A stretch of DNA of 64,000 nucleotides, from the NCBI GenBank assembly GCA_963804995.1, contig CAWDSK010000001.1, positions 352,001 to 416,000 on the forward strand, written 5' to 3'. Position numbers and translations under genes: made by a program. The DNA comes from an uncultured Acidobacteriota bacterium (GTDB taxonomy: Bacteria; Acidobacteriota; Terriglobia; UBA7540). The notes beneath the pieces were generated by a model. The model saw nothing but the letters and a program-made list of their open reading frames with translations, did not search any database and was not told the origin of the DNA. Of this stretch, positions 55,341 to 61,016 are shown one piece after another; position 1 is the stretch's first letter, and every line of letters starts with the position of its first letter.

Positions 55341-55486
55341 GGAAACGGTGTCAGCTACCCTTTTCTTTTCAATTACCGAAGCAGGCGGTTCGGTTCGGAG
55401 CCCTGGGTGTCGAAGGCGGTGGCGCAGTTTGGATTGGAAAATCACAACCCCTGGCGCCCCAAAAAGGGTACCTGACACCGTTCTCC
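55341..55486 (+). mobile_element. Array repeat copy 1: inverted-repeat-bounded unit carrying a RAYT-like transposase 3' end
   Basis: GGAAACGGTGTCAGCTACCCTTTT...AAAAGGGTACCTGACACCGTTCTCC; direct repeat of the 56133 and 58199 copies. Confidence 0.8.
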
Positions 55487-55489
55487 TCC

Positions 55490-55816
55490 TCACTCAAGAA
55501 TTGTCCCCACCTTTGCCAGAACCTCGTCCATGATCGCAGCGGGCACGTTTTCCAACTTTCTGCCGTGGCGCGCGCCGAGATCGAGCGCACGCGGCTGGTC
55601 GCAGCGGATAACGCCGGTGGTTTTCGTGCCTGCGCCGGAGAGAGATACCGCAAATCCAGCCGTCCGCGCGAAATTGCCGCCGCTGGTGATGGGGAGGACC
55701 ACAGGCACCTTGGTGACTTGGTTAAAGGCATCGGGCGAGATGATCAGGACAGGGCGCCGGCCCTTTTGCTCGTGTCCTTCCGCGGGATCAAGCCCCCAGA
55801 TTTCTCCCCTTCTCAT
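55490..55816 (-). CDS. pemK: PemK/Kid (MazF-family) endoribonuclease toxin
   Basis: GHEQ.G.RPVL, PITSGGNFARTAGFAVSL, RCDQPR, as in R1/R100 Kid/PemK. Confidence 0.92.
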   Translation of the reverse strand: MRRGEIWGLDPAEGHEQKGRRPVLIISPDAFNQVTKVPVVLPITSGGNFARTAGFAVSLSGAGTKTTGVIRCDQPRALDLGARHGRKLENVPAAIMDEVLAKVGTILE

Positions 55817-56073
55817 CAGATCATCTCCCGGCCTACAGGCTTGTTATCGAGCCATTCCCGATCCTCTTTCGTGCGGCGAGCCTTGGAGTCGCACTGGGCG
55901 AGCAGTTCGTCCAGGGTGTAGCGGGGCCGTTTGGGCGGCTCCACCACCAACCGGCCGCGTTCGATTGCCATGCCGACCTTGGTCCCCGACCGCAAGCCCA
56001 GGATGTCGAGCACGGCGCGCGGGACGGCCAGCATGACCGAGCCCCCGACCTTGCGCAGATGGGTTGTGTGCAT
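55816..56073 (-). CDS. pemI: PemI/Kis (AbrB/MazE-fold) antitoxin
   Basis: MHTTHLRKVGGSVML, RPRYTLDELLAQCD, REWLD; TGA/ATG coupling to the toxin gene. Confidence 0.92.
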   Translation of the reverse strand: MHTTHLRKVGGSVMLAVPRAVLDILGLRSGTKVGMAIERGRLVVEPPKRPRYTLDELLAQCDSKARRTKEDREWLDNKPVGREMI

Positions 56074-56087
56074 AGCCACTCCTTTCG

Positions 56088-56109
56088 ATTATATTTCAAT
56101 ATAACATCC
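56088..56109 (-). promoter_or_regulatory. pemIK/parD-type palindromic operator
   Basis: Minus strand GGATGTTATATTGAAATATAAT just upstream of the RBS; resembles the R1 parD operator as recalled, not checked. Confidence 0.65.
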
Positions 56110-56132
56110 TTTGTGAGGATTCTCAACACGGG

Positions 56133-56283
56133 GGAAACGGGGCCAGGTACCCTTTTCTTTTCAATAAGCGAAGCAGGCCGTACGGTTCGGAGCCCTCGGG
56201 GTCGAAGGCGGTGGCGCAGTTTGGATTGGAAAATACCATCCGCAACCCCTGCGCCCCTAAAAGGGTACCTGACACCGTTCTCC
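56133..56283 (+). mobile_element. Array repeat copy 2
   Basis: Same ends and same internal sequence as copy 1. Confidence 0.8.
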
Positions 56284-56363
56284 CCTGCGTGTGTTTTCTG
56301 TGATCGCTTCAAACTTTTCGAGGTTTTCTAAAGCTAGGTTGGCAGCCCCTAGTTTATCCATGC

Positions 56364-56771
56364 TCATATAGCCACGGCCCCTCCAAGCTCAAAAATCTCC
56401 AGACGTTTCTTAGCAATCTCAACGTCTAGGTCGGCTAGCTCGCGGTTACACTCCATCATGCTCAGGGTGAAGACCGACTCGTCCGTCAGTGCCAGGTCGA
56501 GTTCCATACAGTGGTTGTGTTGCCATACTTTGGACTCACTATCCGTTACGAGCGCGGCCTTTCGCGTTTTTAGAATCTCCAGTTCGAGTTCCGCCCGTTG
56601 AGTATTTGGCATGGTCTGCATCTCCTTTGTGATCACGAGACGGTTAGGTGGCAAAGCCTCGACAAGGACCCTATCGCCTTCAAAAATCTGTACTTCCGAA
56701 AGAATTATCTGGGGAATTGAAATCACCATTGAACCAGCGACTTTTCGCAGCTTCACAATGTCCCGTGCCAT
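56364..56771 (-). CDS. AbrB/MazE-like DNA-binding domain fused to a helical C-terminal domain
   Basis: [15 protein letters not shown]...GDRVLV swapped-hairpin pattern. Confidence 0.65.
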
Positions 56772-56982
56772 GCACATACATTAACATATATATGGCTCGA
56801 CATCAAGCACTTTGTAATCAGGGGAAAAACCACCCACGCCGGGGATCCTCTAGCACGGTTTTCGGGCACTCCTCCGCGTCAGCCCCACCACCCCTTCCCC
56901 CATGGTGACCCTACTACTAAATATATATAATCCTACACTCCTGTCGCACAGCCCCCAGGCCGGGCGACTCCAAAATGCCCCG

Positions 56983-57996
56983 ATGCCCCTCAGCCGGACC
57001 GAAAGGATCGCGCTTGGAAAACAAAGGGTGAAAAACATCCTACAAAAGCACCTTGTCGCCACAATGCGGACCTTAGAGCAGAAGATCTCCGACGCAGGGC
57101 CATCAAACCAACGCATCAATCCTCACCTGCTCACCAGGGCGCTCCAAGAGCTCGAACAGGAAAAAAAGTTAGTCCGTCTTCAACGCGCTGGTGTCCCATG
57201 GTTCCACTTAGCTCAAACGAACCCGCAAGACGTAGACAGGCGGCTCCAAGTCCTAGAGCCTATTCACGCGGCTACCGTCAACGGGGAGTTCGTAAAGCGC
57301 TTGGGGCAATCACTTGAGATCGCTGTCTTTAAGGCACTCCGCGCCCAGACATCGCTCACTTTCTTTGGTGGGTTCCGAGACCTAGAGGAACACGACGACG
57401 ACTCGTTATACTCGCACGATGAACCCCCTAAAACCGTAAGCGGTCACACGATGCCTGGGAAACTAGACTTCATGGTTCTGGAAGGAGGGGCAATTGGAGC
57501 AATCGAAATAAAAAATACGCGACCTTGGATTTATCCTGACACCAGCGATGACGTACTTGAGCTTCTGCGCAAGTGTTGCGCTACTGACCTCGTTCCGGTG
57601 CTGATCGCTCGTAGGATTCACTACTCGACATTTTCCGTTCTCAGCCACTGCGGGGTTATTCTCCACCAGACCTATAACCAATTGTATCCACGATCAGACG
57701 CAGCCCTGGCTATGCAAGCGCGAGACAAGAACCTCCTTGGGTACCACGACATTCGCCTTGGGAACGAACCGGACGCCCGCCTAATTAAATTCATTCAGAC
57801 TAACCTACCTGCCCTGCTTCAGAGCTTCCGCGAACGGTTTGAACGCTTCAAGGACTTGCTGTGCGCGTACGCTCAGGGCGAGATGCGATACAAAGAATTC
57901 GCTGGCCGATCGAAGCGTAGACTTCGAGGCGAACCCGAGGACCTGCCTGAGTTCGAACCTCCAGACGAGTGGGAGATTCCAGACGATTACATGTAG
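56983..57996 (+). CDS. Hypothetical protein; putative wHTH plus PD-(D/E)XK restriction-endonuclease-like domain
   Basis: GQSLE...LDF...IEIKN pattern. Start position uncertain (ORF opens at 56902). Confidence 0.6.
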   Translation: MPLSRTERIALGKQRVKNILQKHLVATMRTLEQKISDAGPSNQRINPHLLTRALQELEQEKKLVRLQRAGVPWFHLAQTNPQDVDRRLQVLEPIHAATVNGEFVKRLGQSLEIAVFKALRAQTSLTFFGGFRDLEEHDDDSLYSHDEPPKTVSGHTMPGKLDFMVLEGGAIGAIEIKNTRPWIYPDTSDDVLELLRKCCATDLVPVLIARRIHYSTFSVLSHCGVILHQTYNQLYPRSDAALAMQARDKNLLGYHDIRLGNEPDARLIKFIQTNLPALLQSFRERFERFKDLLCAYAQGEMRYKEFAGRSKRRLRGEPEDLPEFEPPDEWEIPDDYM

Positions 57997-58088
57997 AGCA
58001 AACCTCTGGCGGCGCTCCGCTGATAGGGCCGGCTGCATAAAATTCAAAGGTGGTCTAGGTCTTGCGAGAGCCCACTTCCATACCCCCG

Positions 58089-58198
58089 AACGGCAGGCCC
58101 GGACCCGAACCGATGCCATCACGGCAGCAGATCGACCACGCCCGGAAGCTGATCGAGGACGGCCAGCGCCGCGAGGAGGTGGCCGCACTCCTGGAGCA
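58089..58198 (+). pseudogene. Fragment of a serine resolvase/invertase C-terminal HTH
   Basis: GRP...RQQIDHARKLIEDGQRREEVAALL, cut off at repeat copy 3. Confidence 0.6.
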
Positions 58199-58344
58199 GA
58201 AACGGTGTCAGACCCTTTTCTTTTCAATAAGCGAAGCAGGCCGTACGGTTCGGAGCCCTGGGTGTCGAAGGCGGTGGCGCAGTTTGGATTGAAAAATAAG
58301 ATCCGCAACCCCTGCCCCGAAAAGTGTTCCTGACACCGTTCTCC
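58199..58344 (+). mobile_element. Array repeat copy 3
   Basis: Same ends; the interior reads RSRPYGSEPWVSKAVAQFGLKNKIRNP. Confidence 0.8.
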
Positions 58345-58419
58345 CGAGGCGAGGACGCTTGCGAACGTGTATCGAAGATTCGTAGCAAAGACCGACCGTA
58401 GGCCTGGAAAGGAGCGTGG

Positions 58420-59553
58420 ATGATGTCAAACGACTTGTTCGTGCGCCTGTCAAAATATGCTCCCAGGGCGGGGAAAAGCGCCATTGAAAATTTCTTTACG
58501 GAACTGGTAGGCCATCTCCTAGCTCAGGAGGACGCGGCTCGCCAGGAGTTCCTCTGGTTCCTCCCGAGCAATCTAGCCGATAGTCTCCGCGATGCACAGG
58601 TCACAACGCAATATTCAACGGAGAGCAGGAACATTGACCTCGCCCACTTGCGCCCCGACCTAGTGCTGCGCTCGGGCGGATTAGAATTGATTGTTGAGAA
58701 TAAGGTGGATGACAAATTGGAGGAAAAGCAACTTCGCCAGTATCTTGACTATGCCCAGGAGCGACGCCATGCATATGTAGTGGTGGCCTCTAGAGCCCAC
58801 AACCCAACCGTCGAGAAATTCCAACACAACCCTCAGTTCCCTCGGTTTGAGGGTGAGATCCTTTGGTGGCAGGTTGCCGACCGATGGAGCAAAAGAAGAA
58901 CAGACTTCTCAGATAAGTATCTTATTGAGGGTGTACTCGAATTCATGGAGGAGAATCAGATGGGAGCATTTGAACCTTTCCAACAAAAAGAAATCTCTGC
59001 GCCGAATCTGTGGCGCGCCTTCGTCAAGAAAAGAGACCAGTTACTGTCCCGTCTTAGCATGAAAATCGGACAGGCCACGTTGCTTGAGGCTTGCGGATTG
59101 CGGTCGCGGGGGGTGTACCCAGATGGCGAAACCGCAGGGGCATTGAGCCGAAAAGGGTTGGTCTGGTTCAGTCCTAGAGACGGGAATGCCGGCAAAGCTG
59201 ACTTCTGGTATTCGCTCGGCTTCATATATGGTCGAGAGAAGTGGTTGCTCCCGCCTCTCGAAGAGGGCCAACCCGAGTGTATTGCTTTTGTAGGTGCTTG
59301 GCAGCCTGACAGGGTGAGGGACTTGATGGTTGAGGAGGCCAAGCGACTAAGCGCCGGCCTGAGCGCCCCGGTCTTTGAGGTCAGAGGCTCTGACGATCAG
59401 GGCGCCGTTTTCCTATTTCGCCGAAGGCACCTAAAGGATTTCTTAGATGAGACCGACCAGCCCGCAGCCATTCTCAATTTCCTTGAGGAGTCCCACAAGA
59501 AGCTTGAGGCTGTGGTGCCCAAGATTCACGAACACTACCGCCAGGGAACGTGA
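58420..59553 (+). CDS. PD-(D/E)XK nuclease superfamily protein (PDDEXK_4-like)
   Basis: ENFFTE...RPDL...IVENKV...QLRQY. Confidence 0.75.
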   Translation: MMSNDLFVRLSKYAPRAGKSAIENFFTELVGHLLAQEDAARQEFLWFLPSNLADSLRDAQVTTQYSTESRNIDLAHLRPDLVLRSGGLELIVENKVDDKLEEKQLRQYLDYAQERRHAYVVVASRAHNPTVEKFQHNPQFPRFEGEILWWQVADRWSKRRTDFSDKYLIEGVLEFMEENQMGAFEPFQQKEISAPNLWRAFVKKRDQLLSRLSMKIGQATLLEACGLRSRGVYPDGETAGALSRKGLVWFSPRDGNAGKADFWYSLGFIYGREKWLLPPLEEGQPECIAFVGAWQPDRVRDLMVEEAKRLSAGLSAPVFEVRGSDDQGAVFLFRRRHLKDFLDETDQPAAILNFLEESHKKLEAVVPKIHEHYRQGT

Positions 59554-59601
59554 CCCGGCGTGAGCTGCGAACCACACTGTCGGCATACTGACCGGGGGGG
59601 G

Positions 59602-59665
59602 TAACGGTGTCAGGGGGGGACCGAAAAGGGTACATAGCACCGTTCTCCCCTGACACCGTTCTCCC
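59602..59665 (+). repeat. Degenerate array repeat copy 4 (ends only, right end duplicated)
   Basis: AACGGTGTCAGG...CCGAAAAGGGTACATAGCACCGTTCTCCCCTGACACCGTTCTCCC. Confidence 0.7.
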
Positions 59666-59692
59666 AAGTCTTTGTGATACACTTTTGCCGCA

Positions 59693-60568
59693 ATGAGCAA
59701 TCTTTCGGAAACGGTCGCCAGACTAAGGCGCGACTTGGAGACGTTGCGAAGGGGAATAAGCGATCTTCGAGATGCAATACAGGAACACGCCCGCACCATA
59801 CATGACAAGGGTGAATATGAGAACCAAAAGACCCCAGTCTCGCCACCAGCAGTTGTCAAAATAGCGTTCGATGAAGATACGGTAGCTGACTCGAAAAGAG
59901 AGAACGAACGCCAACACCGCACTCAAAAGCAAATAAGGAACGCAACGCGAGCCGCAGTAATCGCAGCCGCCATCTATGCCCTCATATCGCTGGCCATATG
60001 GTTTCAAATGATAAAGCAGAACAAGATTTCAAGTGCTGAGCTTCGCCAGAGCACCGAATCGTTTCGCGTCGATGAGAGAGCTTGGATAGAAATTCAGCCG
60101 ATTAGGCCGATTCCCAGGACTCCGGCTTCGAGTGGTTTTGGGGCAATGTTTACCTATGACATTTTCCCGAAAAACGTCGGTAAGACTCCGGCCTACGACA
60201 TTGCCGTTAAGGCTGTACGCGGAGCGCCGATGTCCGGTCTTTCTTTGGGAGACAACGCCGATGAAATTATGTCTTACCAGAGAATGCTGCTGAAAAATAC
60301 ATTCGGAATGCCAGACGTTCTCATATCTAGAAGGGTCCCTAAAACGCTCGGTCCCGGTGAGGTTTCGAACGCCCCCTTTGATGTATATGGGCAGGAGCCG
60401 CAGAAGGGGCTCTACCAATTCCTGATCGGGCGCGTGGACTACACCGACGCGTTCCGAGTCCAACACTGGATGACATTCTGTCTGTTCATAGCCGATGGCA
60501 AGGGGGACCTTCAGTACTGTCAACAGGGTAACGACGAAGACCGAAATCCAGAGCTTCCGCCAAATTAG
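59693..60568 (+). CDS. Hypothetical single-pass membrane protein
   Basis: 291-aa ORF with an N-terminal coiled coil and one TM segment (AAVIAAAIYALISLAIWF). Confidence 0.65.
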   Translation: MSNLSETVARLRRDLETLRRGISDLRDAIQEHARTIHDKGEYENQKTPVSPPAVVKIAFDEDTVADSKRENERQHRTQKQIRNATRAAVIAAAIYALISLAIWFQMIKQNKISSAELRQSTESFRVDERAWIEIQPIRPIPRTPASSGFGAMFTYDIFPKNVGKTPAYDIAVKAVRGAPMSGLSLGDNADEIMSYQRMLLKNTFGMPDVLISRRVPKTLGPGEVSNAPFDVYGQEPQKGLYQFLIGRVDYTDAFRVQHWMTFCLFIADGKGDLQYCQQGNDEDRNPELPPN

Positions 60569-60623
60569 GGCACTAACTTACTTGACTCATCCACCTCTCT
60601 GGTTACCGATCCTCTCTTGAAAA

Positions 60624-60742
60624 CTGTCATCCTGAGCCCGTCTTTTGGGCGAAGGACCTCGGCATTTCGCCGGAGTGGGGGAGCGGAGCGAACTACCGAG
60701 GTCCTTCACCCCGATAAAGGGCGTCGGGGTTCAGGATGACAG
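60624..60742. repeat. REPIN-like element (GTCATCCTGAG...TCAGGATGAC family)
   Basis: Outer arms CTGTCATCCTGA/TCAGGATGACAG; inner arms GAAGGACCTCGG/CCGAGGTCCTTC. Confidence 0.8.
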
Positions 60743-61016
60743 GTTTGGAAAATGTTGCCCAACCCTTTTTTATCCGCGGTCCCTCTGCGGGATGAGTCAA
60801 GTAAGTTAGTGCCCAAATTAGGACACTACCCGGTATTGCATTACCGAGGCATCCCCCAGCCCAAGGGCGCCCGAAATCCCCCACCCTCACGGAGTAGTTG
60901 ACTTGCCAGGGGAATAAGCTTTCAATTGAGGCCAGCCGGCCGCCGTATGCGCCGCGGATCCTCCAACTTCCGGTGTTCATCGTGCGCAGAACGCCCTCCT
61001 CGCGAAAGGACAATCC

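Follow-up and report, generated by a model that had tools for sequence, protein, structure and literature searches.

The 64,000-nucleotide stretch of DNA analyzed here (the window; contig CAWDSK010000001.1 of an uncultured bacterium of the Acidobacteriota, positions 352,001 to 416,000) contains an island, at window positions 55341..60568, in which four repeat units with inverted ends are separated by small genes; our subject is how these pieces came to be joined. Units 1 (55341..55486), 2 (56133..56283), and 3 (58199..58344), all on the + strand, are miniature inverted-repeat transposable elements (MITEs) derived from a transposon of the TIRtron kind (vide infra); each has inverted ends of ~24 bp, and the mean column identity in an alignment of the three is 87%. 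Unit 4 (59602..59665, +) consists of ends only, namely an empty pair in which the right end is damaged, plus one additional tandem copy of the right end; the interior is absent. The left ends of the full units are also damaged (one substitution in unit 1, two substitutions in unit 2, and a 2-bp deletion in unit 3), and the right end of unit 3 has two substitutions. The three full repeats, the degenerate fourth at 59602, and the translation of the interior, with its TGA within the right inverted end, are as described in an initial annotation of the window.

The first interval contains a toxin-antitoxin pair on the - strand: a pemK/mazF-type toxin gene (55490..55816; PF02452, E 8e-26; NF007320), whose stop codon is 3 bp outside the right end of unit 1, and a MazE-like antitoxin gene of the pemI/mazE type (55816..56079) with an upstream promoter-like sequence (TTGAGA-17-TATATT, 56126-56098) that ends 6 bp from unit 2. 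The second interval is occupied by module 2 (56285..58193, strand not applicable), a 1909-bp piece of a longer donor that lacks such ends. It contains an AbrB/MazE-like open reading frame (ORF) of 137 aa (56364..56777, -; PF04014 at E 0.011, under the cut-off, and a weak TIGR02609 match), a 364-aa ORF (56902..57996, +) whose true start is probably further downstream, and the helix-turn-helix (HTH) scrap of a resolvase gene (58062..58193, +; a homologous scrap is HTH_7) that is cut ~13 codons before the stop, at the left end of unit 3. The 364-aa ORF belongs to no Pfam, NCBIfam, or PADLOC family; in an Atlas search its first matches are unnamed and Mrr/NERD clusters occur only at 0.82-0.84; "nuclease-like" is a lead only. 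The third interval starts with the tail of a WYL-domain gene (the last ~24 codons, 58346..58420, +; 16 of 24 residues are those of the C-terminus of the WYL protein in locus L255), followed by a gene of the PD-(D/E)XK nuclease family (58420..59553, +; PF14281 (PDDEXK_4), E 8e-6; weakly PADLOC PDC-S26, E 2e-4). A 291-aa ORF (59693..60568, +) with a single hydrophobic stretch starts 27 bp past unit 4 and matches no known family. The DNA after the pemIK genes is more A+T-rich than the flanks, as had been noted (GC 0.50-0.58 over 56250-60750 vs 0.55-0.64); the description of the intervals as self-contained modules does not hold for intervals 2 and 3, each of which ends in a cut gene. As a separate observation, the PD-(D/E)XK gene has at its 3' end a stretch of 160 bp (window 59407-59567) with 86-94% identity to three other islands (L236, L237, and L255), far above that of the remainder of the gene; in those islands, the stretch continues into a shared sequence that is absent here.

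The parent element, with the same inverted ends, is present in relatives (e.g., L015) and was not found in the source genome. In L015, a 224-aa gene lies between the same two inverted ends as the window units; its product is a Y1 HUH transposase (PF01797, E 8e-14) with a structural model (pLDDT 79) that is closest to TnpA-REP (4er8; Foldseek, E 1e-8), H60, H62, and Y122 are invariant in 48 sequences, and the protein has at least 7580 relatives. The final codons of this gene are the unit interior, which corresponds to approximately residues 190-224 of the intact transposase with 79-82% identity, so a unit consists of the left end, the last ~35 codons, and the right end. On sequence grounds, the units are internal-deletion derivatives of an element of the TIRYT/TIRtron kind with a 224-aa HUH/Y1 transposase; the earlier proposal that they are non-autonomous and derive from a transposase like the REP-associated tyrosine transposases (RAYTs; REP, repetitive extragenic palindrome), which was based on the resemblance of the interior peptide to the C-terminus of such proteins, is borne out. 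Matches to the L015 protein at E <= 1e-25 occur in 20 of 133 family genomes, the source genome not being one of them, and 32 distinct full-length copies of the element provide 23 distinct left and 29 distinct right ends. The source genome (7.55 Mb, 92% complete) retains only a remnant of the TIRYT gene (residues 172-216) and a scrap, and its 14 other Y1 genes fall in other subfamilies; none of the 14 PF01797 matches and none of the 11 PF00589 matches in the genome is on the window's contig, in agreement with the initial annotation, which found no integrase or intact transposase gene in the window.

The element fits the TIRtron/TIRYT group (TIRYT, a HUH/Y1 transposase associated with terminal inverted repeats (TIRs); Di Nocera et al., 2013; PMC3733652), for which the relevant section gives the repeat consensus GGGGWSAS. 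Here, as in TIRtrons, a Y1 gene lies between terminal inverted repeats that overlap its 3' end, the HUH motif and catalytic Tyr are found in Y1_Tnp, the ends occur solo, in pairs, and in groups, and Acidobacteria are among the hosts; the end core is GGTGTCAG in most copies, one mismatch from the consensus, and GGGGTCAG in L269 and L121. Two differences are in the protein: the class-2 signature published as Y-x-x-x-N-P is Y122-V-E-R-N-A127, with an invariant Ala in place of Pro, and the conserved three-helix tail (residues 169-207) has no HTH Pfam match. TIRtrons are treated as equivalent to TnpA-Y1 subclass 2.1 (Quentin et al., 2018; PMC6006769) and to RAYT group 1, the most insertion sequence (IS)-like group of true RAYTs (Bertels et al., 2017; PMC5581495); as summarized in PMC6006769, subclass 2.1 is the second largest prokaryotic Y1 HUH group (14.9% of strains), and its C-terminal extension is conserved in 2.1.1 and HTH-like in 2.1.2. 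The parts of the TIRtron accounts on which we draw describe no MITE that retains coding sequence, no co-oriented passenger arrays, no joints to foreign DNA, and no activity. We rejected identity with canonical REPtrons (RAYT groups 2/3) because the ends have no GTAG tag and the NF047646 score is 64 bits (cut-off 80). REPtrons and their TnpA-REP enzymes, as covered in the excerpts available, share with the element the HUH fold, a small dyad substrate, C|T or C|A joints, and tandem amplification; they differ in that here the ends are inverted about the gene, a genome holds several near-identical copies of the whole element, and the ends number in the tens and not in the hundreds.

The ends are small dyads around GTCAG, and the predicted substrate stretch is a 21-nt dyad with a C/T tail. 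In 54 of 89 ends, the variable positions of the dyad arms pair, compared with a mean of 25 and a maximum of 40 after shuffling (metagenome loci, for which the search pattern fixed those bases, were left out); the sequences are related, and a dyad protein-binding site would covary as well. A 19-nt end pattern has six exact matches in the source genome vs none in a reversed control, which also gave none in each of 29 genus genomes, and the exact 21-nt end is common to four named records, all from Acidobacteriota/Terriglobia. The deletion joint of the unit recurs identically at ~11 further loci; identity is 92-93% among the window copies and 94-95% between them and locus L143. By these comparisons, the units are a short non-autonomous MITE with both ends that spread as a unit and later decayed. 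The other property of a MITE, insertion into a contiguous target with an empty site and a target duplication, is not seen: in each of units 1-3, the left flank has a different parent from the right flank.

Several features of the element were observed in passing. A -10-like hexamer is conserved ~7 nt before the transposase start in L256, L260, L265, and other intact copies; because this leaves no space for a ribosome-binding site, the transcript is probably a leaderless mRNA. In L287 (6741-7712), a fused ORF runs from the 5' portion of a pseudopilin-like gene across the left end, in frame, into the transposase gene. Four near-identical IS1182-type copies (DUF772 + DDE_Tnp_1_6) are inserted in the TIRYT end core in the source genome (C5:1152180-1155980, C6:1675070-1676830, and C1:247940-249710; L307, L313, and L306), with an apparent 3-bp CAG duplication that is clear in three, the C1 copy being in a degenerate end; these insertions account for hybrid ends at ~10 places in the source genome.

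The parentage of the flanks is clearest for module 2. A 6860-bp contig of metagenome run X1 (record 1) covers 56285-58193 with 83 differences and three gaps (96% identity) and runs beyond both edges into other sequence without an end repeat; on the right side, it completes the resolvase gene that is truncated in the window. Contigs from a different study (run X3, records 14 and 17) stop matching at the same two edges. Homology with the donor begins 1 bp past unit 2 and stops 5 bp short of unit 3, and the edges are joined to the end tails at C/T on the + strand and C/A on the - strand (written C|T and C|A); the continuations of the X1 donor are absent from the source genome (chance-level matches only, at three mismatches). 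This comparison covers the contigs of four runs, in which modules 3 and 4 have almost no coverage.

Unit 3 joins the cut resolvase gene to a WYL gene tail from another context (in G410, the WYL gene precedes the same PD-(D/E)XK nuclease gene), and the left edge of unit 1 bisects an unrelated CACAGAG-type repeat, the second half of which is missing. The 646-bp pemIK module has 26 further copies, of which 24 are nearly full length (73-93% identity in relatives), and their homology ends within ~25 bp of the window joints; none of the 26 has an end core within 70 nt, a degenerate look-alike being present in one copy and REP-type repeats of other kinds in several. In record 21 of run X5, from another sample, an identical pemI promoter (102 nt) is separated from the MITE by 54 additional letters, and the 126 letters past the MITE are unlike module 2; this is probably the same pemI-promoter/MITE joint with a different neighbor. 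In the window, two joints are C|T and another is C|A. The DNA flanking each full unit thus derives from different parents, with no contiguous flanks, and the ends are, on this evidence, joints and not simple insertions. The initial annotation had named cargo in relatives without the repeats as an observation that would point to independent MITE insertions into an existing island: such cargo was found (pemIK and module 2), but independent insertion into one island does not fit, because the donor sequences extend past the shared parts into DNA that is not present here.

Joints of this kind need not imply enzymatic capture. In a passive hotspot, MITEs and elements would insert into variable, dispensable DNA that is later reshaped by adjacent deletions and by host recombination between direct repeats, with no foreign DNA taken up by the enzyme, an explanation that we consider unlikely and nonetheless take seriously; it fits the travels of pemIK without these ends, often beside other REP-type repeats, but it must explain why none of the three full units has contiguous flanks and why both edges of module 2 are at ends, which requires two insertions and two outward deletions.

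The joints have a common signature. From 185 outermost flanks, 30 matched end-free DNA; with five self-matches removed, 25 resolved joints remain. Of these, 20 fall no more than 9 nt from the end core and 15 start at a shared C; joints thus tend to lie a few bases out from the core, most often where a C is shared. Seven of the 25 use local DNA from the same locus, some of it inside the transposase gene, as a passive hotspot would allow. Partial duplications of the end are found on its outside in 131 of 339 ends vs on its inside in 53, and 133 such duplications restart at (C)CTGAC in 58 cases and at C|ACC in 35. In the portion of PMC8266576 concerned with cleavage, TnpA-REP enzymes cut C|T, and one also C|A, on either side of a hairpin and transfer strands; given the C-richness of the tail, the match of the C-start joints to this cleavage is no more than suggestive. 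The joints and tandem ends could also come from the host, by slippage during replication or by microhomology joining in hairpin-prone, C-rich sequence, in which case the transposase would only spread the element. The shared C runs at 15 of 25 joints are what this process would leave, and the restarts could be CC microhomology; the outer-side bias (131 vs 53) and the two sharp restart points fit enzyme cuts instead, and joining to distant DNA would have no explanation, so we consider it very improbable.

In relatives, the elements form arrays. The best natural candidate for mechanistic study is L286 (G420:C12:5000-14900), in which four intact TIRYT elements and several empty pairs occur within 10 kb, the elements being separated by six small co-oriented genes, five without a Pfam family. 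Element copies or end pairs are found among Rhs fragments and small genes in G429, G416, and G362; in L244, L288, L290, and L143 these fragments and genes start at, or lie between, TIRYT ends, with Rhs fragments starting 1-2 bp past an end (the cargo has RHS_repeat matches, one with an Ntox44 domain). Single co-oriented ORFs are tightly bounded by ends in L149, L276, L259, L103, L116, and L089. Adjacent elements 0.25-10 kb apart are co-oriented in 18 of 18 pairs (14 loci), and 68 of 94 nearest ORFs run in the direction of the element. Between outward-facing ends, 18 of 32 intervals contain one ORF, 11 contain two to four, and three contain none; an ORF reaches the interval edge in 12 of the 32 (gene calls made in this analysis). 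Copies are clustered and co-oriented among toxin-antitoxin, nuclease, and Rhs genes, and this supports the initial interpretation in part. The 18/18 co-orientation would be unexpected for a passive hotspot without a strand bias; a replication-strand bias was considered and rejected, given that element orientation has no link to local GC skew (14 vs 16), a weak proxy with an accuracy of 71% (159/225).

These arrays resemble integrons and clusters of attC sites lacking integron-integrases (CALINs), which are likewise arrays of gene-sized accessory pieces rich in toxin-antitoxin and unfamiliar genes, and the ends could be sites dedicated to the reversible and ordered uptake of gene-sized cassettes and domesticated for defense or competition genes. 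The single co-oriented ORFs closely bounded by ends at six loci, the 10-kb array in G420, the Rhs fragments that start at an end, and the fit of pemIK to its interval from promoter to stop would all be accounted for. However, cargo is found elsewhere without its site (all 26 other pemIK copies and the module 2 donor), cuts fall inside genes (the resolvase and WYL genes, the 12 intervals with an ORF running to the edge, and some joints inside the transposase gene), the window cargo is on both strands, and every step duplicates the whole element, not the site alone. In the 92%-complete source genome, the best match to the IntI model TIGR02249 is 77.9 bits vs a cut-off of 265, and none of the 12 weak matches is on the window's contig; the attC core consensus, RYYYAAC...GTTRRRY, was not seen by eye in the window sequence (no attC model was run). 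We therefore rejected identity with an integron, and a true analogue is quite unlikely. The proposal in the initial annotation that a HUH transposase captures and stacks genes as integrons do at attC sites survives in part: the joined modules, established by the module 2 donor, and the HUH-derived units stand, whereas the attC analogy falls with the end-free cargo, the gene-internal cuts, the local origin of DNA at 7 of 25 joints, and the search of the genome, in which no intact transposase of the subfamily was found.

The context of the ends in the source genome is that of variable DNA. A toxin-antitoxin family is found within 3 kb at 8 of 8 other end-bearing loci vs 2 of 10 control-repeat loci (105 proteins scanned, from 127 called and two added; the loci were picked after viewing), or at 8 of 10 with the weak hits L314 and L315 included (five ORFs scanned, no toxin-antitoxin family). 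One of the eight is only AF2212-like, which we take to be a putative antitoxin. These genes are on both the inner and outer sides of the ends, so their clustering marks variable islands and is not proof of capture. The island is at a synteny break: the 2H-phosphoesterase gene on one side is present in 27 of 28 other genus genomes, the acyl-CoA ligase gene is downstream of it at none of 20 loci, the next conserved genes at the 12 2H-phosphoesterase loci listed map to source-genome contig C9, and the upstream genes at 14 of 19 ligase loci map 150 kb away in the source genome. The toxin-antitoxin association, the synteny break, and the fact that many copies in relatives are single are all compatible with a passive hotspot. 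Carriage on a plasmid was rejected (no match at E 1e-20 in 72,556 plasmids). Just past the island, a 33-bp inverted repeat (window 60560-60822) encloses a further REP-like hairpin and coincides with the synteny break.

The reading that we prefer, with a probability of roughly 0.6, is that the island is a patchwork built at the ends of a TIRYT element, with element-passenger arrays stacked as they are by IS26. According to the parts of PMC7986276 on which the comparison is based, IS26 also produces direct repeats that enclose passengers, which are cut at arbitrary places, and leaves the inner joints free of target duplications; IS26 is a DDE enzyme, and its insertion beside a resident copy is demonstrated, whereas for TIRYT it is only postulated. 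A TIRYT acting in trans, since lost from the source genome or unassembled, would bind the end dyad on single-stranded DNA, nick the C/T-rich outer tail, and transfer the end to a C in other DNA. Transfer to the end itself would produce tandem end copies, transfer to nearby DNA would duplicate or delete sequence, and transfer to incoming DNA would add a passenger. Direct repeats with one passenger between them would arise from successive rounds, or from [element + passenger] circles that integrate next to a copy already in place, and selection would retain pieces with a whole expressible gene or an addictive module. Every enzymatic step in this model is inferred; the process would be akin to IS26 arrays or one-ended HUH capture, unlike attC recombination, and the REP-BIME paper of 2012, in the passage concerned (PMC3333891), foresees units that sequester flanking genes or fragments.

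Several observations weigh against a patchwork built by a TIRYT. No intact transposase of this subfamily was found in the 92%-complete source genome, and neither of the two papers that use the term TIRYT reports an activity for it. Insertion followed by adjacent deletion produces the same joints as capture, and the shared C is partly expected from the C-rich tail and could be the product of host microhomology joining. A comparable homologue is available for five window joints; two of these (the pemI and WYL sides, where the homologues are only 93% and 72% identical) are neither C|T nor C|A. Among 178 ends of segments shared between loci, 12 are at an end and just one is so in both loci, the count on which we rejected a cassette that moves with its ends; a Phd/YoeB piece that is 98.8% identical in the source genome and G310 is beside an end in both, 130 bp off in G310. 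No circle or skipped whole-module form was found among the metagenome contigs, none of which spans the island, and no empty site was found, the flanking core genes not being neighbors in relatives. The co-oriented loci are related and not independent, and the skew proxy is weak.

The element itself is known; our additions are a near-identical donor that fixes both joints of a module and a count of co-oriented single-gene arrays. A literature search of titles and abstract openings found no cassette array built by a HUH enzyme and no published test of subclass 2.1 function. A broader claim, which we offer tentatively as possible but doubtful, is that TIRYTs are gene-capture engines, in which the HUH enzyme would join an end to incoming single-stranded DNA and stack it beside a resident copy, giving ordered arrays of toxin-antitoxin, nuclease, and Rhs toxin-immunity genes. 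If so, acquisition would be integron-like with neither a tyrosine recombinase nor a site on the cargo, it would explain how defense and competition arrays are assembled in soil Acidobacteria without integrons, and the enzyme could attach a short tag to arbitrary DNA; otherwise, the repeats would still be useful for marking variable islands. Because the locus and its relatives define a concrete substrate, predict where it would be cut, and include natural products whose donor is known, the question is directly testable in vitro.

Observations on pemIK and on other Y1 families stand beside these. The pemIK operon travels as a ~640-bp unit from promoter to stop (window 55487-56132; C2:584991-585626 in the source genome; L208-L234) that is often bordered by different REP repeats of the GTAG/CTAC type, a hint that other RAYT families also join cargo. 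The 14 Y1 genes of the source genome, from several subfamilies, each have their own flanking repeats, and the window repeats D3, D5, and D9 belong to, or resemble, other Y1-associated families.

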